This document shows, piece by piece, positions 2,864-58,781 of a DNA stretch of 64,000 nucleotides; positions within the stretch are counted from its first letter, which is position 1; every line of letters begins with the position of its first letter. The notes below the pieces were generated by a model. That model saw only the letters and a program-made list of their open reading frames with translations, made no database searches and had not been told where the DNA came from. A program made the translations under genes and the position numbers. Origin of the DNA: Bifidobacteriaceae bacterium (GTDB lineage Bacteria > Actinomycetota > Actinomycetes > Actinomycetales > WQXJ01); assembly GCA_031270825.1 (NCBI GenBank), contig JAISXH010000011.1:12231-76230 (forward strand), written 5' to 3'.

Positions 2864-2873
2864 GTTGACACCG

Positions 2874-4556: not shown

Positions 4557-5590
4557 CGAGAGCTGCCCGAGTCCTCGTCTTGGACCAAACGGCCCGCTTT
4601 GACCATGGCGCCCACCCGGCGGGCCACCAAACGTTTGGGCGTCGGCGAAAGGATGGACTCGGCATCGTGCAAGGAAAACGAACCATAGTGATCGGCGAAA
4701 GCCAACAAGGCGGCCTCGTCGCGACGCATCGCCGGCCAGGCTTGGGCGAATTCGTCACCGATCTCCAAACTGGCGAACAGAGCCGTCAGCCGGTCGACCT
4801 CGTTGGCCAGGCCGCGCAGGTAGAAAGACAGCCAGGTGTTGCGCGAATTGTGGGAGCGTTCCAGGTAGGAGGCGCCGTTGTCCAAGGCCGCGTAATAGGC
4901 CGACCGGTTGCCCAGGTAGAACGAGCCCAGGGCTAGGCCGTCCTGGAGCGAATAGCCGTGCTGGCCGAGCACGATCCGCGCGGTCAGGCGGGCGATCTGC
5001 CCGGTCGAGAGGTTGAAGGGCCGGATCGAGGCGAGTTCTTGATGGGCGATCCCGGCGGCGATGATCGGGTGGGGATCGCTGCCCGCTGTGGCCAGCCAAC
5101 GCAGCAGCGCCTCCAAGCGGGCTTCGATCACGGCGGCGGGAGGCGCCTTGTACCGGCCCCAGTCCGAGCCGGCGAACTGGTCGCCGATCAGCGCCGGGCC
5201 GGGCCGAAATGTGCCCAGGAGAACATCTGGCACCAGCCCTTGGGCGAAGATGCGGTGCATCTCGACGAGGTCCGCCATGGCGAGCGGAGAGGGGTCCTGT
5301 TGGCGCGCCAAACCCCAACGCATACCCGCGCGGGCATTGTGCACCTCGGTGACCGCGCGGGTGGCCGCGTGGACCTCTTCGCCGGCCAGGATGTCCTCAA
5401 TTTGGGACTGGGTCAGGGAGGTGTCGGACAGGCCGGCCGAGGCGACGGCCATGTCGATCTCGGTTTGGCGGTGCAACGACTCGGCTTGTTCGGAGGTCAG
5501 GCGGGCCGCGTCGATGCGACCGCGGGCCCGCTCGATCAGGGAAATGGTCGCGACCAGCTTCGGAGTCAGGGAATAGAACGGGTCGAACAT
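4523..5590 (-). CDS. Fic/DOC-fold protein with degenerate active-site motif and C-terminal wHTH-like region
   Basis: Fic_N-like N-terminus and Fic core layout. The position of HPFx(D/E)GNGRxxR reads RPFNLSTGQIAR (4988-5023). 3' end overlaps the convergent membrane-protein gene by 34 nt. Confidence 0.7.
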   Translation of the reverse strand: MFDPFYSLTPKLVATISLIERARGRIDAARLTSEQAESLHRQTEIDMAVASAGLSDTSLTQSQIEDILAGEEVHAATRAVTEVHNARAGMRWGLARQQDPSPLAMADLVEMHRIFAQGLVPDVLLGTFRPGPALIGDQFAGSDWGRYKAPPAAVIEARLEALLRWLATAGSDPHPIIAAGIAHQELASIRPFNLSTGQIARLTARIVLGQHGYSLQDGLALGSFYLGNRSAYYAALDNGASYLERSHNSRNTWLSFYLRGLANEVDRLTALFASLEIGDEFAQAWPAMRRDEAALLAFADHYGSFSLHDAESILSPTPKRLVARRVGAMVKAGRLVQDEDSGSSRYRPAAPVGSA

Positions 5591-5647
5591 GCCTACCAGG
5601 CTAGAACCAGCCGGCCCGCCAGGGAAAGGCCATGGCCGGCAATGCGT

Positions 5648-6463
5648 TCAGGATTCGAAAGAATGGGCTGAGTCGGGAAAGGACGTGTCCCGGACAGCCC
5701 GCGCGTAGGCGGCGGCGGCATCCCGCAGAGCCGCTCCGACCTCGCCAAACCGTTTGACGAAACTCGGTTGCCACTCGCCCATCCCGGCCATGTCGGTCCA
5801 GACCAAGACCTGGCCGTCGGTGACGGCCCCGGCGCCGATCCCGATGGTGGGGATCTCCAGGGCGGCGGTGACCTGGGCGGCCAGCGGAACAGGCATCATT
5901 TCCAGGACCACCGCGAAGGCGCCCGCATCCTGGACCGCCTGGGCGTCCACGACCAGACGCCGGGCCGAGGCGGCGTCGCGGCCTTGAACCCGATTGCCGC
6001 CCAGCGCGTGAACGGACTGGGGGGTGAACCCCAGGTGGGCCATGACTGGGATCCCGGCGCCCGAAAGCAGGGCGATCTGGGCCGCCACGCGCGCCCCGCC
6101 CTCAAGTTTGACCGCCTCGGCGCCGACCTTCATCAGGGCCGCCGCCGAATCAAAGCAACGCTCCGGGGAGGCCTCATAGGTTCCGAACGGCAAGTCGGCC
6201 ACCACCAGCGCCCGGGTCGCGCCCGCCGCGACGGCTCGGGTCGCGCGCACGCAATCGTCCAGGGAGACCGGCAGGGTGGTTTCATAGGCCAACACCGCGT
6301 TGCCCATCGAATCGCCGACCAGGAGCAGGTCGATCCCGGCGGCGTCGAAAATGGCCGCTGTCGGCCGGTCATAAGCGGTCAGCATGGTGATCTTCTCGCC
6401 CGCCCGCTTGGCTTGGCCCAAGTGGTGGAGTCGGATCTTCTTGACGTCTTGGAGTCCAGTCAT
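5648..6463 (-). CDS. panB: 3-methyl-2-oxobutanoate hydroxymethyltransferase
   Basis: 271 aa with motifs KITMLTAYD, LLVGDSMGN, VKLEGG. Confidence 0.95.
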   Translation of the reverse strand: MTGLQDVKKIRLHHLGQAKRAGEKITMLTAYDRPTAAIFDAAGIDLLLVGDSMGNAVLAYETTLPVSLDDCVRATRAVAAGATRALVVADLPFGTYEASPERCFDSAAALMKVGAEAVKLEGGARVAAQIALLSGAGIPVMAHLGFTPQSVHALGGNRVQGRDAASARRLVVDAQAVQDAGAFAVVLEMMPVPLAAQVTAALEIPTIGIGAGAVTDGQVLVWTDMAGMGEWQPSFVKRFGEVGAALRDAAAAYARAVRDTSFPDSAHSFES

Positions 6464-6466
6464 TGG

Positions 6467-7069
6467 CTAAGCCCTTCCCTCGATTACCTGTTCGGCCGGC
6501 GCCCCGGCCGTCCACAACATCAGGCCCTCGTGACCGGCTGCGGGCTGGGCGATCAGACGCCCCGACGGGTCGGCGGCATAAGCCAGACCGTCCGCCAAGA
6601 CCAGGATGGCGTCGACCGCTCCGGCCGCCTCCGGGTTTCGCGCCTGGCCAACCGCCACGGCGAAGCGATGGCCGTGGGCCGCGAAGACGGCGCCGGACAG
6701 GGGGCCGGACAGGGGGCCGGCCGCCGTGGTCGCCAACGCCACCTTGCCTTTGTGCAGGACCACAGCGGCGTTGGTCGCCCGGTCCTGCCGACCGGTGCCG
6801 GTTGTGCCCACCACCACGTGGCGCCCGCCCAGGCCCCGGTGGTCGAGGACTTGGGCCAAGCGGGTCAGGGCCTGGTCGGCGCCACGGCGCAAGTCATCGC
6901 CGGCGGCCGGATCGTCCGGCCCGATCCCGGTCAGCATCAACTCCGGAAAGACGGTCACCGCCGCGCCCAGCCGATCGGCGCGCTGGGCGTATTCAAGGAT
7001 CTTGGCGGCGTTGGCCGCCAACTCGCCCGGCCCGGGCCGGGCTCTGATCAGAGCGACCGTGGCTGTCAC
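6467..7069 (-). CDS. Carbon-nitrogen hydrolase-like protein (short, lacks catalytic Cys)
   Basis: N-terminus resembles the CN-hydrolase domain of glutamine-dependent NAD synthetases (GELAANAAKILEYAQRADRLGAAVTVFPELMLTG; VLHKGKV). Only 200 aa, and no Cys anywhere. GTG start; 3 nt gap upstream of panB. Confidence 0.5.
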   Translation of the reverse strand: MTATVALIRARPGPGELAANAAKILEYAQRADRLGAAVTVFPELMLTGIGPDDPAAGDDLRRGADQALTRLAQVLDHRGLGGRHVVVGTTGTGRQDRATNAAVVLHKGKVALATTAAGPLSGPLSGAVFAAHGHRFAVAVGQARNPEAAGAVDAILVLADGLAYAADPSGRLIAQPAAGHEGLMLWTAGAPAEQVIEGRA

Positions 7070-7188
7070 CAGATCAGCCTACCTTTTCCGTCTTTGGAAG
7101 CCGTCGGCGTGCCAGGTAACGTCCGCGACACACGGCCGTGGCAAACTGGCAATGTTGGATTCCGCCTAGACCAAGCAAAGGAACCTGA

Positions 7189-8529
7189 ATGGACAGGCAG
7201 CAGGAATACGTTCTCAGAGCCATGGAGGAACGGGACATCAGCTTCATCCGTCTCTGGTTCACGGATGTGCTGGGAATCCTCAAGTCTGTCGCGATCGCTC
7301 CGGCCGAACTGGAGGGCGCGTTCGCGGAGGGGATCGGTTTTGACGGCTCAGCGATTGAGGGCTTCACCCGCGTCTACGAGGCGGACATGGTCGCCATGCC
7401 GGACCCGACCACCTTCCAATTGCTGCCTTGGCATGGCGACAGGCACGGCACTGCGCGGATGTTCTGCGACATTCTGACGCCGGCTGGCGATCCCTCGCCG
7501 GCCGACCCGCGCTACGTCTTGAAGCGCGCCTTGAAGCGGGCCTCCGACATGGGGTTCAGCTTCTACACCCATCCGGAGATCGAGTTCTATCTGTTCAAAT
7601 CCGGAACCGGGCGGTCGACCAACCCGTTGGTGCCGCTCGATTCGGGCGGTTATTTCGACCACACCGCCCGTGGCACCACCAACGATTTCAGGCGCGTCGC
7701 CATCGAAATGCTGGAGGCCATGGGCATCTCGGTCGAGTTCTCCCACCACGAAGCCGGTCCCGGCCAAAACGAGATCGACTTGCGCTATGCCGACGCCTTG
7801 ACCATGGCGGACAACATCATGACCTTCCGCTCGGTGGTCAAAGAGGCGGCGCTGTCCGAGGGCGTCTTCGCCTCCTTCATGCCCAAGCCGATGGCGCGCT
7901 TCCCCGGCAGTGGCATGCACACCCACTTCTCCTTGTTCGAAGGCGACCGCAACGCTTTCTTCGACGCCGACGCGGAGTACGAGCTGTCGAAGACCGCCCG
8001 CGGTTTCATGGCCGGGGTGCTCCACTATTCGCGCGACATCTGCCTGGTCACGAACCAGTTCGTCAACTCCTACAAGCGGCTGTGGGGTGGCGCGGAGGCC
8101 CCCAACTATGTTTGTTGGGGCCACAACAACCGGTCGGCTTTGCTCCGCGTCCCCATGTACAAGCCCGGCAAGCCGCAAACCGCCCGGGTCGAGTTCCGGG
8201 GCATGGATTCGGCCGTCAACCCGTACCTGGCCTTCGCCGCGATCCTCAGCGCGGGCCTGAAAGGGATCGAGGAAGACTTGCCTTTGCCGGCCGAGGCTGA
8301 AGACGACGTTTGGGCGTTGACCGATGCCGAACGGCGGGCTTTGGGCATCCAGCCGCTGCCGCGCTCGCTGGACGAGGCGGTCCTGATCATGTCTGAATCC
8401 GAACTGGCCGCTGAGACCCTGGGCGAGCACGTCTTCGAATTCGTGCTCCGCAATAAACGCCAGGAATGGAACGAGTACCGGGCGCAGGTCACGGCCTACG
8501 AGCTGGAACGCTTCCTGCCGATCTTGTGA
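7189..8529 (+). CDS. glnA2: Glutamine synthetase, GlnA2-type (446 aa)
   Basis: GS N- and C-domain motifs (IRLWFTDVLG, FSHHEAGPGQNEIDL, NSYKRL). AAAGGAA lies upstream of the ATG. Confidence 0.93.
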   Translation: MDRQQEYVLRAMEERDISFIRLWFTDVLGILKSVAIAPAELEGAFAEGIGFDGSAIEGFTRVYEADMVAMPDPTTFQLLPWHGDRHGTARMFCDILTPAGDPSPADPRYVLKRALKRASDMGFSFYTHPEIEFYLFKSGTGRSTNPLVPLDSGGYFDHTARGTTNDFRRVAIEMLEAMGISVEFSHHEAGPGQNEIDLRYADALTMADNIMTFRSVVKEAALSEGVFASFMPKPMARFPGSGMHTHFSLFEGDRNAFFDADAEYELSKTARGFMAGVLHYSRDICLVTNQFVNSYKRLWGGAEAPNYVCWGHNNRSALLRVPMYKPGKPQTARVEFRGMDSAVNPYLAFAAILSAGLKGIEEDLPLPAEAEDDVWALTDAERRALGIQPLPRSLDEAVLIMSESELAAETLGEHVFEFVLRNKRQEWNEYRAQVTAYELERFLPIL

Positions 8530-11500
8530 TGGCGGCGGCAAACTCGCCCGGTCCTAGAGGTCGGGTCCGTTCGGCCACCGGCGACTTGGTTCGGATCGGT
8601 TTCGCGGACGCCGCCAGGGCCGTCAGGTGCTTGGAGGAACTGGCCGAGGCCGGCCTGGAACTCGACCCGCCGGACCTGGCCGCCGTCGCCGATCCGGACT
8701 TGGCCCTGCTGGCCCTGACCCGCATTGCCGGCGCCCAAGACGGGGGCGCTGCTCTGAAGACCCTGTGGGCGGACCGGCGGGCGGTCCTTCGCTTGCTGGC
8801 GGTGTTGGGCGGATCGGCGGCGCTGGGCGATCATCTGGTGCGGCATCCGGAGCACCTGCGCGCCCTGGCCGAAGCCGACATCCTGGCCGACGCCGACGCC
8901 GACGCCGATGCCGGCGCCCCGGAACCCGGCCCGGAACCGACCAGGCGCCAGCTCGCTTTCCGGTCGGCGCTGTTGGAGGCGGTCGGGGCAGACCCGGCGG
9001 CGGCGGTGCCGGTGGCGGCATCGCCCGAGCCGGAGCCGCTGCGCTTGGCCTACCGCCGGGCCCTTCTCCGAATCGCGGCCGAAGACCTGGCCAGCGCGGC
9101 GCCAGAGCAATTGTTTCCCCGCGTCGCCAGCGACCTGGCCGACTTGGCGACGGCGGTGCTGGAAGGCGCTCTGGCCGTGGCGCGGGCGGGGGTGGACGGC
9201 CATGAGCAGGCTCGGCTGGCGGTCATCGCCATGGGCAAGACCGGCGGGCGCGAACTCAACTACGTCTCCGACGTGGACGTGGTCTATGTGGCGGAGCCCG
9301 CCAGCCCCGCCGTGGCAGAAGCGGATGCCCTGGCCGTGGCCACCCAATTGGCCAGCGGCCTGCAGCGGGTGACCTTCGGGCCGGCGAACGAGCCGGTGAT
9401 CTGGCAAGTCGACCCGAACCTGCGTCCGGAGGGCAAGAACGGGCCGCTGGTGCGAACCTTGGATTCGCATCTGGCCTACTACCGAAAATGGGCCAAGACC
9501 TGGGAATTCCAGGCCCTGCTGAAGGCTCGGCCGGCGGCTGGCGACATGGCTTTGGGGCGGGCGTATCACGACGCCACCAGGAACTTCGTCTGGAACGCGG
9601 TGGAATCTGACAACTTCGTCGAAGACGCCCAGGCGATGCGGCGCCGAGTGGAGGAGAACGTTCCCGCAGCCGAGGCGGAGCGCCAGATCAAACTGGGGCG
9701 CGGTGGCCTGCGGGATGTCGAATTCACGGTCCAACTGCTGCAATTGGTGCACGGCCGGGCCGATCCGTCGATCCGGGCCGCGACCACTTTGACAGCCCTG
9801 GAAGCCTTGCGCGACGGCGGTTACGTGGGCCGCCAGGCGGCGGGACGGCTGGCCGATTGCTACCGGTTGGCCCGCACCTTGGAGCACCGCCTCCAGCTTC
9901 ACCGGCTGAAACGGACGCATCTGATGCCGACCGCCGCGGCGGACCTGACCCGCCTGGCCCGCGCCGCCCGGATTGTTCCCGCCGAAGGCGCCGAACTCGG
10001 CAAGACCTGGCTGGCGACTCGTCGCGAGGTCCGCTCCCTGCACGAGGAGCTGTACTACCGGCCGCTGCTGCCGGCCACCGCCAAGCTCTCAGCCGGAGAG
10101 GCGACCTTGTTGCCAGGTGCGGCGCGGTCGCGTCTGGCCGCTTTGGGCTACCGCCACCCGGACGGCGCCATGCGCCATATCGCGGCCCTGACCAGCGGTG
10201 TGACACGGCAAAGCGCGATCCAGCGGCAGTTGCTGCCGGTCATGCTGGGCTGGTTCGCGGACGGCGCCGACCCAGACGCGGGGCTGCTGTCATTCCGCCA
10301 GTTGTCAGAAGCGCTCGGCTCGACCCATTGGTATCTGCGCCTGCTGAGGGATTCGGCCGGGGCGGCCGAACGGCTATCGCATGCGCTGGCGGCGTCCAAG
10401 TACGTGGCCCAAAACCTGGCTCGTTCGCCGGAATCGGTGCGCTGGCTCGATTCGGACCGCGACTTGGCGCCGCGCGAACCCGACCAACTTCGGGGCGAAC
10501 TGGCCGCGGTGGTCGAACGCCGTGAGTCGGTCGAGGCGGCCGGCACGGCCGTGCGCGGCCTGCGCCGCCGGGAGCTGACCCGCTTGGCGACCGGTATGGC
10601 GTTGGGTTTGTTGGACGATGGCGCCGCCCGCTTCGCCGTCTCCTCCAGCGCCGCGGTGGCGGTCGGGGCGGTCTTGGAACTCGCGGTCAAAGCCCAGATC
10701 AGCGAGGACGGGGAGCAGCTGGCCAACCTGGCGGTGATCGCCATGGGCTCGTTCGGCGGACGCGAAATGGCGATCAGCTCCGATGCCGACGTGCTCTTTG
10801 TCCATCGCCCTAGGCTGGGGGCGGATGAAACAGCCGCCCAAAGCCAAGCCGAGGCCATCGCCAGGCAGGTGCGGGGGCTGGTCGGCGGCATCGGACCCGA
10901 ACCGGGTGTCGAACTCGATGTCGACCTGCGCCCCGAGGGACGGTCTGGGCCGCTCACGCGGTCGGTCGACGCCTATCGTGAGTACTACGCCCGCTGGGCG
11001 CTGACCTGGGAGCGCCAGGCGCTGCTGCGGGCCCGGCCGCTGGCGGGGGACCGCGAGTTGGCCCAGGCCTTCATGGCTGTGGCCGATCCGGTCCGCTACC
11101 GGCCCGGGGGCCTGAGCCAAGGCGAACTCAAGGATTTGCGGCTGCTCAAGGCCCGGATCGAGGGCGAGCGCCTGCCGCGCGGGGTCGAACCCTCACGGCA
11201 CGTCAAACTAGGGCCCGGCGGACTCTTGGACGTCCAGTGGGTGGCCCAGCTATACCAACTTCGCCACGCCGGAGCAACGCCGGCCCTGAGGGTCACCGGG
11301 ACGGTCGAGGCCCTGCAGGCCGCTGCCGCCGCTGAACTGATGGACCCCGCCGACGCGGCCATCTTGGTCGAGTCATGGATGCAGGCGATGTCGATCCGCA
11401 ACGCCAATGTGCTTTGGACCGGCCGGTTGGGGCCCTCCAGCGACGTGGTCCCATCCGATCCGCGTCACTTGCGAGGCGTGGCCGGCCTGATGGGCTATGC

Positions 11501-47892: not shown

Positions 47893-48629
47893 AAGCCCCA
47901 GCCGCTGATCAACAGCGATTATTGGTTGTGCAGTCCCACGACACACAACTGCACCGTCTGGCCCATCGACGCGCCAACTTGCCGGTCAAAGCTGAAATGG
48001 CGCTGGCCCAAGACCAGGAGCAGTTGGCGGGTGAAGAACTCGAGATCGCCAAAGCCAAGGCCGGCGACATCCGGCGCGACCTGACCCGGGTGGAGGACGA
48101 ACTCTCGAAGGTGGCCGGCCGCCACCGCCGCGACCGCGAGAGGCTGGAATCCGGGGGCGGCCAGTCGCGCGAGCTGCTGTCCCTGCAACAAGACCTGGAG
48201 CTGCTGGAACGCCGTCGCGACCGGCTCGAAGAAGAGGCGCTCGAGGTGATGGAAGTGCTCGAGGAGGCGCAGGCGGCGGTGGTGGGGCTGGAGGCGACCT
48301 TGAAGCGCCTGGGCGCGTTGAGCGCTGACTTGAGAGGGCGTCTGGACGGGCAACTGGCTGAGATCGCGTCTGCGGAGGCGGTCGAGCAGGCCGCCCGGGC
48401 GGCGGCCGCCGAAGGCCTGGACGAGGCCCTGGTCAAGCTCTATGAGCGACTGCGTGAGCGCTTGGGCGGGGTCGGGGCCGCCGCTTTGATCCGCCGGCGC
48501 TGCGAGGGCTGCGGCATGGACGTGAGCAGTTCTGACTTGGACGCGATTCGCGCCCTGGCCGCAGATGACGTGGCCCGCTGCGAGGAATGCGGCCGGATTC
48601 TGGTCCGGGGCGAGGACTCCGGCTTGTGA
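47889..48629 (+). CDS. Zinc-ribbon/coiled-coil protein (DUF164 family)
   Basis: Long coiled coil followed by CEGCGM...CEECGRIL. TTGA overlap with the nif3 stop. Confidence 0.8.
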   Translation: MKAPAADQQRLLVVQSHDTQLHRLAHRRANLPVKAEMALAQDQEQLAGEELEIAKAKAGDIRRDLTRVEDELSKVAGRHRRDRERLESGGGQSRELLSLQQDLELLERRRDRLEEEALEVMEVLEEAQAAVVGLEATLKRLGALSADLRGRLDGQLAEIASAEAVEQAARAAAAEGLDEALVKLYERLRERLGGVGAAALIRRRCEGCGMDVSSSDLDAIRALAADDVARCEECGRILVRGEDSGL

Positions 48630-49912
48630 AGCTGATTGTCGAAGCGGACGGGGGCTCGCGGGGCAATCCGGGGGTGGCGGGGTTCGGCGCCGTGGTTCGC
48701 GAGGCCGGGACCGGGCGCGTGCTGGCCGAGCGAGCCGCCTACCTGGGCGACGCGGTCACCAACAACGTCGCCGAATACTCCGGTCTGATCGCGGGCCTGC
48801 GCGCGGCCGGCGAAGTCGATCCGGCGGCGGCGGTGGAAGTCCGTATGGACTCCAAACTGGTCGTCTCGCAGATGTCGGGGGTCTGGAAGATCAAGAACCC
48901 GCAGTTGGCCAAGCTCGCCGCTGAGGCCCGCCGATTGATCGGCCGGCGGACAGTGGTGTTCAAATGGGTCCCGCGCGCCTCCAACCAGGCCGCTGACGCG
49001 CTGGCCAACCAGGTCATGGATTCGCGCGGCGCCATCGCCAATGGCGAAGATTCGCCGCTGGCCGCCGCGGCGGGTTCGCCAGCGGGTTCGGCTGGGGTTG
49101 CGGCGGTGGGTTCGCCAGTGGCAGCGGCGCCGGGTTCGCCAGCGGGTTCGGCCGGGGGCCCGGTGGCCGCCCGCCGCCCGGACCGGCCGGGGAATCCGAG
49201 GGCTTTGGACGATGCCGTGCGCCTGGCCCAAGCGGTCAGTTCCGGCGCCCAGCGTCATCCGGGGACGCCTGGCCCGATCACGACCGTGATCTTGATTCGC
49301 CATGGCATGTCGGTCGACACCGATCGGGATGTGTTCGCCGGCGGGGCGGTGCCCGGGCCGCCGCTTTCCGAAGCCGGGGCGCTTCAGGCCGTCGCGGCCG
49401 CCGACGAGTTGACACGCATGCTGGAAGCCCCCTGGTTCGCCTTGGAGCGGCCGTCGGTGCTGGTGTCTTCACCGACCAGGCGGGCCATGCAGACGGCCGA
49501 ACCGGTGGCGCGAGCCCTGGGCCTGACGGTCCACATCGACAGCGGCTTCGTCGAGGAGGACTTCGGGTTGTGGGATGGTCTGACCAAGGACCGGGTGGAG
49601 GCGCGCTGGCCGGGCGGCGTCGAGGCCTGGGCGGCGGACGCGGACTACGAGCCGGGCGGCGGCGAGTCGCGCCGCCAGGTCGGTGTGAGAGTCCAGGCGG
49701 CCTTGGCCCGCGTCGCCAGAGCCAACCTGGGCAAGACCATTGTGATCGCCTCCCATGCGATGGTGACCAGGGCCGCGATTGGCGCGGCCTTGGGCGCCTC
49801 GGCGCAGGCCTGGTTCGGAATCAGGATCGCGCCCGGATCGATCAGCGCGCTGCGGCTGTGGCCCCAGGGCCTGACCGAGGTGGTCTGCACGAACCGAACC
49901 GCCGCCAGGTAG
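48626..49912 (+). CDS. Bifunctional RNase H / histidine (CobC-like) phosphatase
   Basis: RNase HI part: IVEADGGSRGNPG, NNVAEYSGLIAGL. Phosphatase part: ILIRHGMS, ASHAMVTRA. GTG 48626 overlaps the upstream stop (GTGA). Repeat-rich linker. Confidence 0.85.
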   Translation: MKLIVEADGGSRGNPGVAGFGAVVREAGTGRVLAERAAYLGDAVTNNVAEYSGLIAGLRAAGEVDPAAAVEVRMDSKLVVSQMSGVWKIKNPQLAKLAAEARRLIGRRTVVFKWVPRASNQAADALANQVMDSRGAIANGEDSPLAAAAGSPAGSAGVAAVGSPVAAAPGSPAGSAGGPVAARRPDRPGNPRALDDAVRLAQAVSSGAQRHPGTPGPITTVILIRHGMSVDTDRDVFAGGAVPGPPLSEAGALQAVAAADELTRMLEAPWFALERPSVLVSSPTRRAMQTAEPVARALGLTVHIDSGFVEEDFGLWDGLTKDRVEARWPGGVEAWAADADYEPGGGESRRQVGVRVQAALARVARANLGKTIVIASHAMVTRAAIGAALGASAQAWFGIRIAPGSISALRLWPQGLTEVVCTNRTAAR

Positions 49913-49920
49913 GGTGGATG

Positions 49921-50307
49921 CCGGATGAGTCGGCTGGACGGCCGCGTCGGGCATCGCGCCTCTTCTTAGGGGGACGCCGGTCCCGCCGAGGAAAGTCCGG
50001 GCTCCGCAGAGCAGGGCGGTGGGCAACACCCACCCGGGGCGACCCGCGGGAAAGTGCCACAGAAATCAGACCGCCGGGGCGCCGCATGGCGCCGCGGTAA
50101 GGGTGAAACGGTGGTGTAAGAGACCACCAGCGCCCAGGGTGACCTGGGCGGCTCGGTAAACCCCGCCCGGAGCAAGGCCAGACAGGTGGCGTTCGAGGGC
50201 TGCTCGCCCGAGCCACCGGGTAGGCCGCTGGAGGCCCGCGGCAACGCAGGTCCTAGATGGATGGCCGTCTTCAATGACAGAACCCGGCTTACAGGCCGGC
50301 TCATCCG
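49921..50307 (+). ncRNA. rnpB: RNase P RNA, bacterial type A
   Basis: GAGGAAAGTCCGGGCTCC and ACAGAACCCGGCTTA universally conserved blocks. P1 pairing cggatgag...ctcatccg. Confidence 0.9.
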
Positions 50308-50389: not shown

Positions 50390-51238
50390 TCAGGCGTTGA
50401 GCGATGGCGGGGCGGCAGGCGGGGCGGGGGTGGCGGCCGTGGCCGGCGTGGTGCGCAGCGCCGGGGTCGCCGCCGCCTGCGCGCTGGCCGCGTCCTGCCA
50501 GGCCAGGACGGCCGCGCCGACAATCCCGGCGCTGTTGCGCAGGGCGGCGGGGACAATCTTGGGCCGGAGGTGTAGCAGGGGCAGGAACTTGTCATGTTTG
50601 CGCGAGATGCCGCCGCCCACCACGATCAGGTCGGGCCAGAGCAGGCGGTCGATCTCGGTGAAGTAGCGTTGCAACCGCCGCGCCCACTTAGCCCAGGTCA
50701 GCGACTCTCTTTCTTTGGCCGATGCCGCCGCCCACTTTTCGGCGTCCTTGCCGTTGATGGTGAGGTGCCCCAGTTCGGCGTTGGGCCAGAGCTTGCCGGC
50801 GGTGATCAGGGCCACGCCGATGCCCGTCCCCAGCGTCATGACCGCGACCGTGCCGGGGTGATCTTTGGCCACGCCGAAGGCGACTTCGGCATAGCCGGCC
50901 GCGTCAGCGTCGTTGACCACGGTGGTGTTGCGCCCGGTGCCCCGGCGAACCGCCTCGGCCAGGTTGACACCAACCCAGGATTGGTCCAGGTTGGCCATCC
51001 ACGGCACCACGCCGCTCAGAATCGGGGCCGGGAAGGACACGCCGACCGGCACTGACTGGTCAAGGTCGAAGTGGTCTAAGAGTTCCGCGATCACACCGAC
51101 CACCGCTTCGGGGGTGGCGGGCTGCGGAGTCAGGATCTTGAAGCGCTCCTCGGTCAGTTCGCCGGTGTCGAGATCGACCGGCGCGCCCTTGATCCCGGAA
51201 CCGCCGACGTCCACGCCAAAGGCTGTCTTTGCGGGCAT
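50390..51238 (-). CDS. ppgK: Polyphosphate glucokinase (ROK family)
   Basis: [20 protein letters not shown] layout with a C-terminal Ala/Pro tail. Confidence 0.86.
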
Positions 51239-51387: not shown

Positions 51388-52200
51388 TTGGTGCTGGTGC
51401 CAGTGACCGACCCGGCAGACCCGCGACTGGAGCTGTATTTCCATCTCACCGACGTGTCGCTGAGAACCCGATTCGAACCGGAACGGGGCCTGTTCATGGC
51501 TGAATCGGCCCAGGTGATCGGCCGGGCCCTGGACGCGGGCGTGGAGCCCTATTCAGTGCTGATGACGCCGAAATGGGTTGAGCCATTGGACGGGCTGATC
51601 GGGCGCTTGGCGCCCGGCGTGCCGGTCTATGTCGGCGTGGACGAGTTGCTCCACCAGGTGACCGGGTTCCACGTCCACCGGGGCGCGGTGGCGGCGATGC
51701 GCCGCCCGGCCCTGCCCACCTGGGAGGTGGTGGTGGGCGGCGCGCGCCGCCTGTGTGTGATCGAAGACGTGGTCGACCACACCAACCTGGGCGCGATCTT
51801 CCGTTCGGCGGCGGTCTTGGGCGTCGATGCGGTCCTGGTGACGCCGCGCGGCGCCGATCCGCTCTACCGCCGTTCGGTCCGGGTCTCGATGGGCACGGTC
51901 TTCCAGGTCCCGTGGGCCCGCATCGATCCCTGGCCGGGCGCTTTGGTGGGGCTGAAGGGCGACGGTTGGCATGTCGCCGCCTTGGCGCCGGACGGTGACA
52001 GGTACGATGCCGTGCCCCTCGACAGATTCGCCTCCCACCTCCCGGCCCGCTTGGCTTTGCTGGTGGGAACTGAGGGCGATGGCCTGACGGCGGATGCGCT
52101 GGCGCTGGCCGATTCGGTGGTCGCCATACCGATGGCGGCGGGGGTGGACTCGCTGAATGTGGCGGCGGCATCGGCGGTGGCGTTCTGGGCCACTCGCTGA
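51388..52200 (+). CDS. TrmH/SpoU-family RNA 2'-O-methyltransferase
   Basis: NLGAIFRSAAVLGVD, LLVGTEGDGL and IPMAAGVDSLNVAAASAV motifs. Confidence 0.85.
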   Translation: MVLVPVTDPADPRLELYFHLTDVSLRTRFEPERGLFMAESAQVIGRALDAGVEPYSVLMTPKWVEPLDGLIGRLAPGVPVYVGVDELLHQVTGFHVHRGAVAAMRRPALPTWEVVVGGARRLCVIEDVVDHTNLGAIFRSAAVLGVDAVLVTPRGADPLYRRSVRVSMGTVFQVPWARIDPWPGALVGLKGDGWHVAALAPDGDRYDAVPLDRFASHLPARLALLVGTEGDGLTADALALADSVVAIPMAAGVDSLNVAAASAVAFWATR

Positions 52201-52220
52201 CCGAGCCGTTCGGGGCGCCC
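52142..52220 (+). repeat. Left copy of island-flanking direct repeat (3' end of the TrmH-family gene plus ~20 nt)
   Basis: Hand-aligns to 58051-58126 with 68 of 76 aligned positions identical and one 3-nt indel. Includes perfect runs of 15 and 21 nt. Confidence 0.85.
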
Positions 52221-52883
52221 GGGGCCAGGATCGCCCACCCGGAGCCGCGCCGCCCAAGACAAGCGCGCCGCATCCCCTCTGGCCCTGGCCGCGAAGCTCG
52301 CAATGCCAAAGTGCTGACAAGCGCAGCCCGATGTGGCCGCCCGCCCGCGCGACCTGGTGGCTAGGCATCTGCCGACGCGCCGGCGTCCTGGCCGCCTGTC
52401 AGCGATAGCGGTCCCTCATCGAAGCGACGCAGGGCAAGGGGTACCGCCTCGCTTCCCCGCGCGACGAGCGTTGACGACCCCGACCAGCGGTTTTGTACGG
52501 GCCGACCGCCTGACCAGCACCAATGCCCAAAGCCAGGCCTGCGCCGCGCGCCCTCGCGGGTGGGCGCGTCATGAGGCTGGTCGGCGCGGGGGCCGCGGCT
52601 CTGGCCGGGCTGCGGCGCGTCCTGGGGGCCCGGGCCGGTCTGCTCGACGCACCCGGGAGGCCTGTCCGTCAGCGCGATCACCGGCCTGAAACGGGCCGGT
52701 GGTCCGCGTTGGGGTAGCCTTTCGCCGGGCAGCCGGTTTGACCGGTGACGGGGGGGCGAATATTGTGTGGCAAGCTGACGGGAGCAGAAATGGCTTATCG
52801 CGTGCCTCTCCTGGCGCAAACAGGGTGCGCTCACTATTCAGGACGGATGTGAGAAGTCGATGGCAAATACGGGTATTCGCTAA

Positions 52884-52961
52884 ATGATAGTGATCGGTGC
52901 GTGCAGCGCTCTCGCGGGGATTGGCCTGTTGGTGGCACCTGCTCTGTGGCAGTGCAACTGA
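52884..52961 (+). CDS. Candidate small ORF, 25-aa hydrophobic peptide MIVIGACSALAGIGLLVAPALWQCN
   Basis: ATG..TGA read directly in the lower-GC leader of the island. No clear SD. Not in the ORF track because it is too short. Confidence 0.2.
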   Translation: MIVIGACSALAGIGLLVAPALWQCN

Positions 52962-52978
52962 CGGGCCCGGTCTCGCCG

Positions 52979-53095
52979 ATGGGGACGAAATACACCGGGA
53001 CCTATGCTGCGTCTACAGGGCCGACGAATCAGACTACTTACTTCAGGCCGGTTGGGGCACGGCACTGGTCCGGCGGCACAATGAAGACCACCTGA
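52979..53095 (+). CDS. Candidate small ORF, 38-aa Thr/Gly-rich peptide (GTG 52901 would give 64 aa)
   Basis: MGTKYTGTYAASTGPTNQTTYFRPVGARHWSGGTMKTT. The stop lies 3 nt before, and in the same frame as, the lipoprotein ATG at 53099. Confidence 0.25.
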   Translation: MGTKYTGTYAASTGPTNQTTYFRPVGARHWSGGTMKTT

Positions 53096-53098
53096 CGC

Positions 53099-53743
53099 AT
53101 GGTGGCGGCAAGAAGACGCGCCGCGCGGCCCGCGATCTTGGCCGGCCTGGCGCTGACGGCTTCGGCGCTGGCCGGCTGCGCTGGTGACGCTGGCGAGGCG
53201 CCCGCTCCGACCACCTTCGAAGGCGTTCTGGCGGAGGCGACAGAACGTGGCTATTGGGCGCTGGACAGACTCGAGGACGGCGAGGTCACCTTTGACGAGC
53301 TGGAGTGGGCGCACGACCAATGGGAGGGCTGCGTCAATCAGATCGGTTACAACGTGATCGCCCTTGATTCATGGCGCAGCCCCGTGGACGGAACCCTGGG
53401 CGGCCTCTGGTATGACTGGAACGGTCAGGAGCCGGCGCCGGATCAAGACGACCCGGTGCTGGGGGAGAAGATTGAGGCCTGCTTCGCCGACTTCGACTTG
53501 GAGCTACTGTCTTTGGCCTACTCCGTGGGCCACGAACAGGTGATGGATGAGCCGCTGCGGCAATACACGCTTGAGTGCTTGGGGGAGGCCGATTTGAAGC
53601 CAGATCCGAGCGACCAGTCCGTGCCGGACCTGATGGCGGACCCGGGCGTGGGTGAGGGCGCCTTCTACCTTGTTGAGGCTTGCGTCACCAAGGGCGTTGA
53701 GGAGCTCTATCCCGAAGTCCTACAAGTGTCAGTGGGCTACTGA
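53099..53743 (+). CDS. Acidic lipoprotein, unknown function
   Basis: Signal peptide plus lipobox LALTASALAGCAGD. Four further Cys. No recognisable family. Confidence 0.6.
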   Translation: MVAARRRAARPAILAGLALTASALAGCAGDAGEAPAPTTFEGVLAEATERGYWALDRLEDGEVTFDELEWAHDQWEGCVNQIGYNVIALDSWRSPVDGTLGGLWYDWNGQEPAPDQDDPVLGEKIEACFADFDLELLSLAYSVGHEQVMDEPLRQYTLECLGEADLKPDPSDQSVPDLMADPGVGEGAFYLVEACVTKGVEELYPEVLQVSVGY

Positions 53744-53745
53744 GA

Positions 53746-54846
53746 GTGGGTCGATTACTCCAGGGAACAGCGGTCGTCGGGCTGCTGGTATGGGTCGCGG
53801 CGCCGTTGGCGGGTTTGGCGTTGCTGGAACGCCAGGACGGTGAGGCCGTCTTCGCGGAGGTCGAGCCAGTCTTTGTGCCCGTCCAGCCGGCGCCGGACAC
53901 AGAGGTGCGCGAGGTCGGCTTAGCGTTGAATTGGTCCGATCCCGCCCAACTCGTCGCTCCGGCTTGGCAGGGAGTGGTGGATCGGGTGTTGGTGGCGCCC
54001 GGGGATCGGGTGGCGCACGGGTCGGCGTTGCTCAGCCTGGACGGGATCGAGCGCATAGCCTGGGCCACGTCGGGCGCCTTCTACCGGCAATTGGCACTGC
54101 GGGACAAAGGGCCTGATGTCGAATGGCTAAACCAGGCGCTGGCAGCCGCGGGACTGCGCCACGCCGCCGGCGCCGAGTTCACGGCCGAGACCGCGGCCGG
54201 GGTCAAAGAGTTCGCAGCGTCCATCGGGGCGCCTGCGAACAATGGAGTGTTCGACCCCGGCTGGGTGGTGTTTCTGCCGATCGCGGAATTGGTGATCAAA
54301 GAGGTGGCTGTCAGCGCCGGCTTGCCGGCGCCGCCGCCCGGATCGGTTCTGCTCCAAGCGCAAGTCCAACTGGTGTCAGCCGTCCTGATCGGCCTGGACG
54401 TCTTGGAACGCCGTGAGTCTGAAGCGAACGACCAGGCAGGCGCGGTTGATCCGGTGGCCCCCGCCGACGAGGTGTTGGCGGTGGACGAGACCTTGTTGGT
54501 GGACGGCCTAGACCTGGCGCTGAACGATGCTCGGGACGGTCTGGGGCCGCAGGCCCTGGCCACCTTAGATGGCAGGGTGCAGCCTGGTCTGGCCAGTCTG
54601 CGCGCGCAGGTGCGGCGGCCCAGCGGCGCCGATGCCGTCAGGGTGCCTACCGCTGCCGTCTTTGACTCGGGCGGCGGTTCCGCGTGCGTGGTTGTGGCGG
54701 CTGGAGCGGGTGACCCGGGCGTCGTCGAGGTCGAGTTGATCTGGGACGACTCGGGCTTCAGCGTTGTTCGCCCGCTCCTGGAGGGCGCTTTGGACGGGGC
54801 CAAGGTGCGCCTGCCCGGCGGTGGTCCGGCCGCGGTGTGCGGGTGA
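53746..54846 (+). CDS. Membrane-fusion (HlyD/MacA-like) adaptor with peptidoglycan-binding domain
   Basis: N-terminal TM segment. Barrel-sandwich-like GVVDRVLVAPGDRVAHGSALLSLD. PG_binding_1-like VEWLNQALAAAGL...TAAGVKEFAASIG. Confidence 0.68.
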   Translation: MGRLLQGTAVVGLLVWVAAPLAGLALLERQDGEAVFAEVEPVFVPVQPAPDTEVREVGLALNWSDPAQLVAPAWQGVVDRVLVAPGDRVAHGSALLSLDGIERIAWATSGAFYRQLALRDKGPDVEWLNQALAAAGLRHAAGAEFTAETAAGVKEFAASIGAPANNGVFDPGWVVFLPIAELVIKEVAVSAGLPAPPPGSVLLQAQVQLVSAVLIGLDVLERRESEANDQAGAVDPVAPADEVLAVDETLLVDGLDLALNDARDGLGPQALATLDGRVQPGLASLRAQVRRPSGADAVRVPTAAVFDSGGGSACVVVAAGAGDPGVVEVELIWDDSGFSVVRPLLEGALDGAKVRLPGGGPAAVCG

Positions 54847-55457
54847 CAGCCGTGGCGGCCGGCGTTGAAGTGGTCGGGTTGACGCATGGGTTCGAGGATC
54901 GGGTGCTGTTCGCGGACTTGTCCTGGTCGGTGCCAGGCGGGTCGATCACAGCGGTGATGGGTCCCTCAGGCGTGGGTAAGTCAACCCTGTTGGCGTTGAT
55001 CGCTGGGCACTTGACCCCATGGCAGGGGCAGATCCGAACGGCCGGAGCGGTGGAATGGATCGTCCAGTCGGTGCCTATGCTGGAGCGCCGCAGCGCGCTC
55101 GACAACGCCGCCATGGGGCTGATCGCCCAGCGCGTCAAGTGGGAAGAGGCGCGCCAGCGCGCCCAAACCGCTCTGGAAAACTTCGCGCTGGGCGCTTCGG
55201 CTGCCACGCGCGTGGCAGAATTGTCCGGCGGCGAGCGGCAACGGGTGGCCGTGGTCCGGTCGGTCTTGAGGGGCGCGCCGGTGCTACTGGCCGACGAACC
55301 GACGGCCTCACTCGACCCGGCCACCTGCGAGTCGATCTGCGACGCGCTGGTGGCCAGCGCCCGCGCCGGGGCGTCGGTGCTGGTGGCGACCCACGATCCG
55401 GCGGTCGCGGCCCGCTGCGAGAAGGTCTTGGATCTTTCGGTATGCGCTCGCGCCTGA
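54837..55457 (+). CDS. ABC transporter ATP-binding protein (MacB/LolD-like)
   Basis: Walker A GPSGVGKST, signature LSGGERQRVAVVRS, Walker B VLLADEPTASLD. GTG start overlaps the upstream stop. Confidence 0.88.
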   Translation: MRVTAVAAGVEVVGLTHGFEDRVLFADLSWSVPGGSITAVMGPSGVGKSTLLALIAGHLTPWQGQIRTAGAVEWIVQSVPMLERRSALDNAAMGLIAQRVKWEEARQRAQTALENFALGASAATRVAELSGGERQRVAVVRSVLRGAPVLLADEPTASLDPATCESICDALVASARAGASVLVATHDPAVAARCEKVLDLSVCARA

Positions 55458-56542
55458 ACCGACCGGTCCGGCCGCCGGCCGGGATCGGGGCCGCCCAAGC
55501 CGCGGCTGAGACTCTCAGGAATCTGGCGGCGGCGTTCTGGAGGGCGACTCTGACCGCTGTCGCGGCCGCTGTCTTTGGGATTGGGATTGTCACGGCGACG
55601 GTGCTAGACACATCCGCAATCGAGCGCCAGTACCTGACCGAGCGGGACAAGGGGGCCTATGTTTTCGAGGCCCGCTCTGGCAACACCGACGGCTTGGACG
55701 GCGCGCGCTGTTCGCAATTCGCGCGTGTCGACGGGACGCTGGCGGCGGGAGCCGCGCTGTCTGAGGAAACGGTGGCTCTAGCCTCGGCCCCGGGCCAAGC
55801 AATCAGACTGGTCAGAGCCACACTGGGGACGGCCCAGGTGGCCTGGCCAGGTCAGGCGGACCTGGCGCGTTCCTCGACGGTGGTGGGCCAGGATCTGGCG
55901 GAGAAGTTCGGGTTGGCCGTCGGCCAAGAGGTCGCTCTAGCCAACGGCGGAACACTGACGGTGGACGCCATCGGGGCTGGGGAGGCGCGAATTGGCGGCT
56001 ATTCCTTGGCAATCGTTGTCGCGGCGGTGCCGCGGTCCGGCGAGCGATCGGCCAGTTGTGTGATCGAAGCCCGCCCCGGCCACCAGGCGGCCATCCGGCA
56101 GGCTCTGAGCGGCTGGTTCGACCCGGCCGACAAGGTGGTCGTGTTCGAGTTGTTCGAGCGCAGCGCCGGAGCCGAGGATCCGGCGACGCGCCTGCGCGGC
56201 CGGGTGTCGGCCCGGATCGCGGCCGGGCTGGGCGCTGTTGCTCTGGTCGGGTCGTGCGCTGGGTGGTGGGCGCGGCGGCGCGATGTGTCGCTGTACAGGA
56301 TGCTCGGCGCCCGGTCATGCGACCTGCTGGCCATGGCAACGACCGAATGCCTGGTTGTTTTGGTGCTGCCAGCCATGACGGGCGCGGGTTTGGCGGTCTT
56401 CGCAATGGCGCCAGAAGGATTGGTGGCGGCGGCGGTGTCGCGCGATCTGTTGCGCTTCCTGGCGTTCGGGGCCTTGGCGCCGGTGGCGGCGGTCCTGTTG
56501 TTGGGTCGGGTGCGGCCGTGGGACGGGGTCCGCGGCGTTTGA
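55442..56542 (+). CDS. FtsX/MacB-type ABC permease
   Basis: Trimmed to ATG 55442, a 16-nt overlap with the ATPase gene. TM1, a ~200-aa extracytoplasmic domain, then three C-terminal TM segments (FtsX-like). Confidence 0.75.
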   Translation: MRSRLNRPVRPPAGIGAAQAAAETLRNLAAAFWRATLTAVAAAVFGIGIVTATVLDTSAIERQYLTERDKGAYVFEARSGNTDGLDGARCSQFARVDGTLAAGAALSEETVALASAPGQAIRLVRATLGTAQVAWPGQADLARSSTVVGQDLAEKFGLAVGQEVALANGGTLTVDAIGAGEARIGGYSLAIVVAAVPRSGERSASCVIEARPGHQAAIRQALSGWFDPADKVVVFELFERSAGAEDPATRLRGRVSARIAAGLGAVALVGSCAGWWARRRDVSLYRMLGARSCDLLAMATTECLVVLVLPAMTGAGLAVFAMAPEGLVAAAVSRDLLRFLAFGALAPVAAVLLLGRVRPWDGVRGV

Positions 56543-56759
56543 GCCAACCCGGGCGGGCGAGCTCGGCAAGACTAAGCCCGCCGTGGATTCGCGTTGACCA
56601 CGAGCCCCCCGGCTCACTGGTGGGAGCCCAATGGGGTCGTGGTGGGGTCTTGGCGGGGTCTTGGCCCTATGGGCGCCGAAACATCGGAGGTGCCGGGGGC
56701 TCCAGAGTTCGGGATCCGACCGACGCCGACTCTAGGGCGGGGGAATTGTTCATGCACCC

Positions 56760-57476
56760 TTGGGTAAGTGGGGGACGCGTCCGGTAACCGCAGGTGTGGC
56801 TGTGGCCATCGCGGTGCCAAGTTACGCTGATGCCCCGCAAGGAGAGCCCGGGGCTGGTCTCGAACTCGCTCAGAATGTCGCCACCGGCACGGTCGTGGGG
56901 GCCGACCAAGTGCCGTTGCAGAGGGCTGGTCCTAGCGGGTTCTTCCCGGTCGACACGGACTGCCTCTCCTTCGACGAGTACGGCTACCAGACTTGGAGCG
57001 GCGGTTTTGCGCCGGGCGTGAGCGAGCTGGGCGACGAGTTGTCGGCCATCGTGGACGCCAACAACTCGTTCGCGGCGGGAGTGGCGATCTGTTCGAACCG
57101 TGCCGGGTTGGCGGTCTTCGTCGCGGAACGGGATCCTGAGTTGATTGCCCAGATCGACGCGGCGGCCGCGAAGCACCCTTCACTGCCAGTGTCGATCGAG
57201 GACGTCGCCGTTGGAGCCGGCACGGCCGAGGCGGTGGCCCTACGGCTGCGGGATGCGGACTTCGGCTCCACCATCACGGCTGTCGGGGTGGACGTGCACA
57301 CCGGTGGCCTGTTGGTCTCGGTCCTGCCCGAGGCCATGTCGCGGGAGGCGGACCCGGTCACGGCGGAATCGATCCACTCATATGTGCTCGCCGTGGAGGG
57401 TTTGGAGCTCCCGGTGGCGCTTGAGCCGGTCCCCGCGGGGGAGGACTCGAGCGGCCTGGCCGACTCCGCCGCATAG
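56760..57476 (+). CDS. Secreted protein, unknown function
   Basis: Signal-like N-terminus ending AVPSYA/DAP. Two segments faintly reminiscent of alpha-lytic-protease pro-domains. TTG start uncertain. Confidence 0.5.
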   Translation: MGKWGTRPVTAGVAVAIAVPSYADAPQGEPGAGLELAQNVATGTVVGADQVPLQRAGPSGFFPVDTDCLSFDEYGYQTWSGGFAPGVSELGDELSAIVDANNSFAAGVAICSNRAGLAVFVAERDPELIAQIDAAAAKHPSLPVSIEDVAVGAGTAEAVALRLRDADFGSTITAVGVDVHTGGLLVSVLPEAMSREADPVTAESIHSYVLAVEGLELPVALEPVPAGEDSSGLADSAA

Positions 57477-57510
57477 TCGTGGGGTTCGTCGGTGACCCAC
57501 AGCCTTAACG

Positions 57511-58020
57511 ATGTGGTTCAAGGTATCTAATTCGACAGGAGTGGCTTTGAAGATCAAGGGGGCGACGCGCCTGCGGACCGCAGGCTTGGCTGTGGCGGCA
57601 GCAGTCCTGGTGGCAGCGCTGATGGGATCATGTGTGGTTGGCGGCAAGACCGGCCCGGGGTCCGCCACGCCGGTCCAAAGCAGTCCGGAGGCGCCCCAAG
57701 ACGACCCGGGCGCATGCCCGGCGGAAGGCTCCGACTCACCGCTGCTGACAACGTCGATAGCGGAGGCTCACGCCGAGGACGCGCTGCCCGCCTGCGGGCC
57801 TGGTGATTCCGAGCCGAGGCCGGGAGTGCTGGGGGAGGCGCGCGTCCAGATTTACGCCACCGACGGGATCGACCTGCCTGCCGAGGTCAACCTGGAGCCG
57901 GAACTAGGCCTGACCAACCTGGCGGAGTGCCAAGAGCGACCGGGTTCGGCCACCTTCTTCGTAGACGGCCAGTGGCATATCGGCCGAAACGTGGTCTGCT
58001 CGCAGCTCGACGGCCTGTGA
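57511..58020 (+). CDS. Putative lipoprotein, unknown function
   Basis: Lipobox-like AALMGSC and four further Cys. Alternative starts at GTG 57541 or TTG 57547, after AGGAG. Confidence 0.5.
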   Translation: MWFKVSNSTGVALKIKGATRLRTAGLAVAAAVLVAALMGSCVVGGKTGPGSATPVQSSPEAPQDDPGACPAEGSDSPLLTTSIAEAHAEDALPACGPGDSEPRPGVLGEARVQIYATDGIDLPAEVNLEPELGLTNLAECQERPGSATFFVDGQWHIGRNVVCSQLDGL

Positions 58021-58050
58021 GGCGCCCAAGCCCGCGCCCGGGCCGCCGGC

Positions 58051-58142
58051 GGGTGGACTCGCTGATGGCGGCGGCATCGGCGGTGGGGGTCTGGGCCGCC
58101 GGCCGACCGAGGCGCTCGGGGCGCCCAGGCGAGCCGGCTTAG
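58051..58142 (+). pseudogene. Displaced 3' remnant of the TrmH-family gene (right copy of the direct repeat)
   Basis: Translates in frame as VDSLMAAASAVGVWAAG..., compared with the live C-terminus VDSLNVAAASAVAFWATR*. TGA is changed to CGA and the frame runs to TAG 58140-58142. Confidence 0.6.
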
Positions 58143-58163: not shown

Positions 58164-58781
58164 CTAGATCAGGCCGGCGGTGCCGAGGCGGGCGCGGGCG
58201 AAGCGAGCCGCGACGTCATCCCAGTTGACAATGTTCCAGAAAGCGGCCACGTAGTCGGCCTTGACGTTCAGGTAGTCCAGGTAGAAGGCGTGCTCCCACA
58301 TGTCGAGGACCAGCAACGGAACCAGACCGGCGGAGAGGTTGGACTGATGGTCGTAGAGCTGGTTGACCAACAGTTGGCCGGCCAGCGGCTCCCAGGTCAG
58401 GATCGCCCAGCCGGAGCCCTGGATGGAGGTGGCGGCGGCGGAGAACTGCGCCTTGAAGGCATCGAAGGAGCCGAAGGCGCCGGTGATCGCGTCCGCCAGT
58501 TCGCCCTGCGGCGCCAGCGACGAATCCGGGGTCAGGTTCTGCCAGAAGACGGAGTGATTGACGTGGCCGGCCAGGTTGAAGGCGAGGTCTTTCTCCAACT
58601 TCGGCAGGATGGCGAAACTGCCCGAATCCCGGGCGGCGGCCAACTGCTCAAGGGCGGTGTTGAGGCCGGCCACGTAGGCGGCGTGGTGCTTGTCGTGGTG
58701 CAGTTCCATGATGCGGCCGGAGATGTAGGGCTCCAGGGCGGAATAGTCGTAAGGCAGATCGGGCAAGGCATACAGAGCCAT
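58164..58781 (-). CDS. sodA: Fe/Mn superoxide dismutase
   Basis: [28 protein letters not shown] and [11 protein letters not shown]. Confidence 0.95.

Follow-up and report, generated by a model that had tools for sequence, protein, structure and literature searches.

A small accessory islet at the 3′ end of a conserved gene for an RNA methyltransferase in an uncultured actinobacterial lineage

How does the end of an intact gene come to stand twice in a bacterial chromosome, with six other genes between the two copies? The question is raised by a 64,000-nucleotide stretch of contig JAISXH010000011.1 (positions 12,231 to 76,230; assembly GCA_031270825.1), high-GC actinobacterial DNA (GC = 67.7%) labelled Bifidobacteriaceae, to which we refer as the window. 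A TrmH/SpoU-family RNA 2′-O-methyltransferase gene lies at 51388–52200 on the + strand (270 amino acids; Pfam PF00588, E 2.5e-31). It is intact, its product is 100% identical to the JGI-called metagenome protein P0001 of a 158.7-kb contig, and its C-terminus, ...VDSLNVAAASAVAFWATR*, is the same in the orthologues at three related loci (L081, L082 and L087). The last 59 nt of this gene, including the stop codon, together with 23 nt beyond it form the left, attL-like copy (52142–52223, +) of a direct repeat. The right, attR-like copy, a non-functional TrmH 3′ end with its post-stop block, lies at 58051–58129 (+), ahead of the Fe/Mn superoxide dismutase gene sodA (58164–58781, −; PF02777 and PF00081), which converges on TrmH. 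The explanation that we favour, with moderate confidence, is that the islet of 5,906–5,909 bp delimited in this way (approximately 52224–58129) entered as a circle that integrated by a single crossover in the 3′ end of TrmH, its recombinase having since been lost or having been supplied in trans.

We first consider the repeat itself, which a first-pass annotation of the window had reported at these coordinates with 68 of 76 aligned positions identical. Our alignment is slightly better, at 70 of 79: 15 of 15 positions are identical, then comes a 3-nt gap (an ATG present on the left copy only), then 21 of 21 identical positions and finally 34 of 43. The copies thus span 79–82 nt with 87–89% identity, and local alignment extends them back to 52136 and 58044. 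The local alignment score is 106, compared with a maximum of 38 (mean 20.4, s.d. 3.6) among 828 other 300-nt windows from both strands of the same 64 kb. Both the 21-mer core and a 22-nt block after the stop codon occur twice in the window when up to three mismatches are allowed (0.00–0.01 occurrences expected). As the annotation had also stated, the right copy still reads in frame, as ...VDSLMAAASAVGVW... within an open reading frame (ORF) at 57927–58142, the TrmH stop codon TGA (52198–52200) having become CGA (58104–58106). Relative to the TrmH end, it carries a 3-nt deletion and five amino-acid changes and has lost the stop. It starts 30 nt past the stop codon of the last islet gene, i6, and ends 34 nt before that of sodA; the dead TrmH end itself is 57 nt from the sodA stop codon.

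That the DNA between the copies is an insertion follows from comparison with relatives. In a protein search, the nearest relatives of the window's TrmH, at 74–82% identity, were encoded in metagenome-assembled genomes (MAGs) labelled Bifidobacteriaceae; a scan of contigs gave none closer than 66% among the matches listed. In one of these genomes (L081, GCA_031281585.1), TrmH converges directly on sodA with the two stop codons 22 bp apart, and in another (L086, GCA_031257375.1) the two genes overlap at an equally empty site. The flanks of both loci have the order seen in the window, where an RNase H/phosphoglycerate-mutase fusion gene (48587–49912, +), the bacterial class A RNase P RNA (49926–50307, +; 298 bits) and the ROK-family glucokinase gene ppgK (50390–51238, −) precede TrmH, and a response-regulator-like ORF (Rv3143-like in the window), trpD, an AsnC gene and a lipoprotein gene follow sodA. 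Adjacent to TrmH in both genomes, sodA is its apparent ancestral neighbour. Because the TrmH–sodA site is empty in L081 and L086, the approximately 5.9 kb between the copies are an insertion and accessory, as the first-pass annotation had proposed, and the two copies enclose the indel with a precision of about 60 nt. No islet gene stands next to TrmH at the remaining four loci (L082, L083, L087 and L088), so that the count is zero for the six relatives examined. What follows TrmH among these other relatives is a GH127 gene, an aldo-keto reductase gene with an unrelated ABC system, or a penicillin-binding protein (PBP) gene and then imuA′-imuB-dnaE2, and the L082 contig ends 426 bp past TrmH. 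To judge from these gene orders, the lineage varies in what it carries directly behind TrmH.

The two copies are not equivalent. The protein encoded by the left copy equals that of the orthologues, and in the right copy each of the five differences within coding sequence is non-synonymous; this decay on one side and orthologue-like sequence on the other would fit a displaced original end that is now degenerating. The annotation had gone further, proposing that the element brought a replacement 3′ end and pushed the original to the far junction. For TrmH genes as such, this model is supported by the codon composition of a second locus described below; for the window, either copy may be the displaced one, since the crossover may just as well have occurred beyond the stop codon, such as within the shared TCGGGGCGCCC. 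The native gene end would then have stayed on the left, and the degenerate copy would be the element's own. The 21-mer is identical in L082 and L087, the post-stop block is present in this genome only among the relatives compared, and the duplicated 26 nt after the stop are conserved in none of the relatives examined. At L086 (4700–4810), TrmH has lost its usual stop after ...FWATR, and its frame continues into the 3′-terminal part of the convergent sodA gene. The TrmH C-terminal tail thus seems to tolerate extension, which bears on whether the right copy (…GVWAAGRPRRSGRPGEPA*) could once have functioned. One further proposal, that 36 perfectly matching nucleotides form the crossover core, has to be corrected: the identical positions are not contiguous, being a 15-nt and a 21-nt block split by the 3-nt indel, and they come without arm-type repeats.

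We then asked what could have moved the islet. In agreement with the annotation, which had seen no integrase, excisionase, transposase or relaxase between the copies, we detected no match to an integrase, resolvase, transposase or relaxase in the six islet ORFs or in six-frame translations of the gap that precedes them (52190–53110). Searching those translations against Pfam at E ≤ 10 for the remnant of an integrase returned nothing relevant, the one match (E 0.2) being due to chance. At the DNA level, the islet matched a plasmid collection only in the ABC signature region and a phage collection not at all.

Other TrmH loci show that this gene end has received foreign DNA elsewhere. Among 83 TrmH loci scanned for a repeated 3′ end of the gene, the sole convincing case was L026, from a Cellulomonas sp. 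MAG (JAPSIR010000045, 10508–13934), where TrmH's final 310 nt reappear 3.1 kb downstream with 73–79% identity. The GC content at third codon positions (GC3) at L026 is 0.95 in the 5′ part of TrmH, 0.73 in the 3′ part of the functional gene and 0.94–0.97 in the displaced, frameshifted copy. This contrast, in which the functional end looks foreign and the displaced copy host-like, is direct evidence at this locus of a replacement end supplied by the element and an original that was displaced. The 2.8-kb insert holds small unannotated ORFs (GC 0.69 versus 0.74–0.755 in the flanks), and no integrase was found in it either. A match to the TrmH 3′ end at another locus (L042, score 53) was discarded as a chance similarity inside another gene. 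Compared with L026, where the duplication is 310 nt long, differs mostly at synonymous positions and shows the GC3 contrast, the islet has an 80-nt duplication with non-synonymous differences and no such contrast.

A phage contig is the second such locus. In L085 (IMGVR_UViG_2974781296_000001, 8504–10447), a large serine integrase gene on the minus strand (phrog_95, E 9e-92) directly adjoins a TrmH fragment that covers residues 118–270 and is 63% identical to the window's TrmH. On one side lie genes for an Lsr2-like protein, ribonucleotide reductase, a sigma factor, an exonuclease, a primase and DnaB, and on the other those for ThyX and a deoxynucleoside monophosphate (dNMP) kinase. The arrangement resembles a phage attachment site (attP) that would supply the host TrmH with a replacement end of 153 codons; in a phage with a serine integrase, this would be unusual. 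As a published precedent, a Mycobacterium abscessus prophage has its bacterial attachment site (attB) in a SpoU-like methyltransferase gene, at codon 6 (PMC10654092). L085 differs from the islet in having an integrase, and that integrase has no match in the islet. In metagenome and viral collections, the 15- plus 21-nt core occurred in only two contigs, L089 and L090, from an unrelated, lower-GC organism. There, about 50 nt of the TrmH 3′ end (L089:1849–1900 and L090:1458–1508) are identical to the window but for one base (GGGGTGGACTCGCTGAACGTGGCGGCGGCATCGGCGGTGGCGTTCTGGG), the TrmH proteins are only 48–49% identical and an AT-rich terminator follows. The match probably reflects coincident codon choice for the conserved GVDSLNVAAASAVAFW motif and not an attachment site.

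On the explanation that we favour, circular DNA would have entered the chromosome by a single, Campbell-type crossover somewhere in the final ~80 nt of the TrmH locus, duplicating that stretch at both junctions, so that the left junction would retain an intact TrmH and the right one would bear the dead gene end. The integration module would have been deleted, or would never have been present, with the integrase supplied in trans; either way, the islet would be a cis-mobilizable element (CIME) or a decayed integrative element. The annotation's claim of integration into the TrmH 3′ end is supported by this footprint and by the way in which the repeat brackets the indel. Its further claim, that the integration was site-specific, is not, as nothing at the locus separates such an event from a RecA-mediated one: a homology of ~80 nt fits the att region of a tyrosine integrase, a serine-integrase element with a replacement end or RecA integration alike. 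Several observations weigh against the favoured explanation. All nine substitutions between the copies fall within the last 43 of the 79 aligned positions (P = 0.0027), so that uniform decay from identical copies fails as an explanation, and the 26 nt past the stop are duplicated too, although they are not needed to restore the gene. The islet lacks recombinase genes, recombinase relics and genes of conjugation or of phages, and therefore cannot be tied to a known element family; around the reconstructed attP, arm-type repeats did not exceed shuffle expectation. The closest TrmH is only 82% identical. Finally, both the GC content of the islet (0.685 versus 0.677 for the window) and its tetranucleotide composition (distance rank 9 among 117 equal-sized windows, z ~1.5) lie within the range of the window. 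The annotation had held that a composition indistinguishable from the flanks, together with a repeat due to an unrelated local duplication, would tell against an insertion; the first half of this is nearly what we found, and the empty sites outweigh it. The islet genes have a GC3 of 0.795 versus 0.829 ± 0.042 for 50 other genes (one-sided Mann–Whitney p = 0.018). Composition thus gives weak support for an insertion; the donor had a similar composition, or else the integration happened long ago.

These points leave room for other explanations. RecA could have integrated, by a single crossover, a non-replicating circle (for instance an excised or transformed fragment of a related strain's DNA) that carried 80 or more nucleotides of the TrmH 3′ region. 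The footprint would be the same as that of site-specific integration, the absence of an integrase would need no added assumption, both copies are of the lineage's own sequence type to judge from the distribution of the 21-mer and the post-stop block, a host-like composition fits a donor that was a close relative, and the 15 + 21 nt of perfect identity could mark a tract of exchange or heteroduplex repair. However, some 80 nt at 87% identity make a poor RecA substrate, the explanation does not say why the circle carried precisely the TrmH 3′ end, and dedicated TrmH-targeting elements are suggested by the parallels in L026 and L085; we regard RecA integration as unlikely, if still a serious possibility. 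We hold it to be more doubtful that the TrmH/SpoU 3′ end is a recurrent attachment site in Actinomycetota for unrelated replacement-end elements, represented by the window, L026 and L085, in which case the islet would be a functional, non-autonomous element, excised and integrated by a TrmH-specific recombinase from another part of the genome or from a visiting element, with the 15- and 21-nt blocks as its recognition sequence. It is improbable that the islet genes are ancestral here and that the lineages of L081 and L086 lost them by deletion, with the repeat as an unrelated local duplication. The composition near that of the flanks, the lack of close relatives with which to polarise the event and the variability of the region downstream of TrmH would agree with this; yet none of the six relatives bears an islet gene next to TrmH, homologous modules occur at unrelated loci, a coincidental duplication is not expected to bracket the indel so closely, and precise deletions would have had to happen twice independently. 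That the repeat is a coincidence of GC-rich sequence, or an artefact of assembly, might also be suspected in a window of 68% GC with many 25–40-nt imperfect repeats, but this is effectively refuted by the distance of the alignment score from its background, by cores confined to the two places and by a right copy that retains both the TrmH frame and the same post-stop block.

With integration in the TrmH 3′ end as the favoured account, the islet can be set beside known systems. CIMEs have lost their integration and transfer genes and retain attL and attR (PMC5704250), and in streptococci both CIMEs and decayed remnants from integrative and conjugative elements (ICEs) or integrative and mobilizable elements (IMEs) are found in the 3′ ends of protein-coding genes (PMC5704250, PMC7563491). 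An att-like structure without an integrase is therefore less unusual than the first-pass annotation supposed, decayed elements of this sort being a described class. Like a CIME, the islet lies between attL/attR-like direct repeats that take in the target gene's 3′ end, leaves the target intact and holds only cargo; structurally it agrees with the class, although its copies are imperfect. As to descent, it contains no ICE, IME or prophage relics and no cognate integrase is known. It differs further in that its repeats are longer and more diverged than typical att cores and that its host is an uncultured high-GC actinobacterium labelled Bifidobacteriaceae. With autonomous integrated elements it shares the direct repeat and the empty site, and it lacks an integrase of its own near one end.

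Variants of the staphylococcal cassette chromosome (SCC) without recombinase genes exist. In staphylococci, SCC and pseudo-SCC elements occupy the rlmH (orfX) 3′ end; like the islet, they leave a SPOUT-superfamily RNA methyltransferase gene active and are bounded by direct repeats (PMC9728531). We do not count the islet among them, since its target is a SpoU/TrmH gene (PF00588) and not rlmH, it has no ccr serine recombinase, it resides in another phylum and its repeats are ~80 nt long compared with 15 bp. Replacement-end elements at transfer RNA (tRNA) genes, such as mv4 (doi 10.1101/2023.11.06.565760) and one at a tRNA-Arg site (PMC10654092), share the Campbell-type footprint, in which one junction has the functional gene end and the opposite one a displaced pseudo-end, as in the islet. 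We conclude that the islet is an ordinary decayed or non-autonomous genomic islet and no new kind of element.

What does the islet carry? As the first-pass annotation had listed, six ORFs and about 0.9 kb without a convincing gene (52224–53098) lie between the copies. The six ORFs, which we call i1 to i6, are co-oriented on the + strand (53099–58020) and make up one operon. The first, i1 (53099–53743; 214 amino acids), encodes a lipoprotein with a signal peptide and the lipobox LAGC, and is 35% identical to a 203-amino-acid protein in the same position of a related module, L092. It is followed by i2 (53746–54846; 366 amino acids), a protein of the membrane-fusion (periplasmic adaptor) type with an N-terminal transmembrane helix and, as weak profile matches suggest, a peptidoglycan-binding-like insert. 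Its AlphaFold model (predicted local distance difference test score, pLDDT, 89.5) is matched by Foldseek to CusB, MexA, AcrA, BesA and MacA (best E 3.5e-9, probability 1.0); template modelling (TM) scores against adaptor structures are low (0.3) owing to a different arrangement of domains, and the sequence gives weak matches to TIGR01730 RND_mfp. A word-based homologue search for i2 returned only i2 itself; an exhaustive HMMER search recovered a family of 1,023 representatives at E ≤ 1e-3. The next gene, i3 (54837–55457; 206 amino acids; PF00005, E 9.8e-27), encodes the ATPase of an ATP-binding cassette (ABC) transporter whose nearest NCBIfam models are of the lactococcin-972-type exporter, FtsE, LolD and MacB kind. 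In i4 (55442–56542; ~366 amino acids), a MacB/FtsX-like permease, the matches to PF12704 MacB_PCD (E 0.01) and PF02687 FtsX (E 0.074) are weak and below the cut-offs; its L092 orthologue (33% identical) passes FtsX with 30.9 bits versus a cut-off of 25.5. Neither i5 (56760–57476; 238 amino acids), which has an N-terminal signal-like segment, nor i6 (57511–58020; 169 amino acids), a probable lipoprotein, has a family match in Pfam or NCBIfam, and both may be further secreted proteins or lipoproteins.

The first four genes also occur elsewhere. In L091, an i1–i4 module with 49–60% identity (52% for i4) adjoins typA, and in L092 one with 33–54% identity lies between a metB-like gene of Cys/Met metabolism and msrA; i5 is absent from both modules, and neither context is mobile. 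The recurrence of i1–i4 as a unit at unrelated actinobacterial loci marks it as a transferable cassette. Judged by the predicted fold and by family, i1–i4 may form a MacAB-like envelope exporter or extruder. As in MacAB-type (type VII ABC) tripartite exporters, one gene group encodes an adaptor, an ABC ATPase and a MacB/FtsX-like permease, the ATPase and the membrane-fusion adaptor fold being recognizable and the i4 permease itself falling below profile cut-offs. The islet module differs in having a Gram-positive host and hence no TolC partner, in an adaptor with the peptidoglycan-binding-like insert where the α-hairpin would be, and in an extra lipoprotein that is always encoded upstream in modules of its type. 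On the source contig, outside the window, protein P0151 is a second ABC ATPase, 48% identical to i3, and the genome probably carries a paralogous adaptor/ABC/permease module.

The gap between the left copy and i1 is very GC-rich over its first ~500 nt, with a hairpin at 52679–52701 followed by a lower-GC stretch (52740–52900). The sole sigma-70-like promoter site that a promoter scan found in the region (52738–52766) lies in or at this stretch. Folding is not unusual (z-scores −1.9 and −1.0), and a structured RNA was rejected as a candidate, the sole Rfam match being a chance hit to a microRNA model far below threshold. The frame plot is ambiguous. Directly upstream of i1 (52885–53187) are a 25-codon ORF that resembles a signal peptide (MIVIGACSALAGIGLLVAPALWQCN*), a 64-amino-acid ORF in another frame and a Cys-rich ORF of 96 amino acids (52897–53187) that overlaps the start of i1 and has the most gene-like codon-position GC of the three. 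A bacteriocin-like gene at this place, by analogy with a 118-amino-acid secreted protein in L092, was considered and rejected, as there is neither homology nor a clean ORF.

The surroundings of TrmH vary in other ways. L082 (GCA_031268215.1) has, between the RNase P RNA and ppgK, about 7 kb (1773–9007) with seven co-oriented ORFs without a Pfam family; the window has nothing at this position, and no direct repeat was found flanking the L082 insert. The DNA past the TrmH stop is lower-GC in L082. The imuA′-imuB-dnaE2 mutagenesis cassette lies within about 3 kb downstream of TrmH both in L083 (1936–8102, after the PBP gene) and in L042 (13998–16217, after an α-amylase gene), and is another recurrent occupant of the region behind this gene. 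In the window, the RNase P RNA sequence is partly open as long spurious ORFs on both strands.

These results describe a small accessory islet placed at the 3′ end of a conserved gene for an RNA methyltransferase in an uncultured actinobacterial lineage. They change no concept, and are of use for the annotation of genomic islands in MAGs and for finding new pairs of integrases and att sites. Together with L026 and L085, the islet suggests that mobile DNA lands repeatedly in TrmH among high-GC Gram-positive bacteria, much as it does in tRNA genes or rlmH elsewhere. The cargo is one of a family of adaptor/ABC/MacB-like modules in which a lipoprotein is obligatory; this family is widespread yet unannotated and may merit study.

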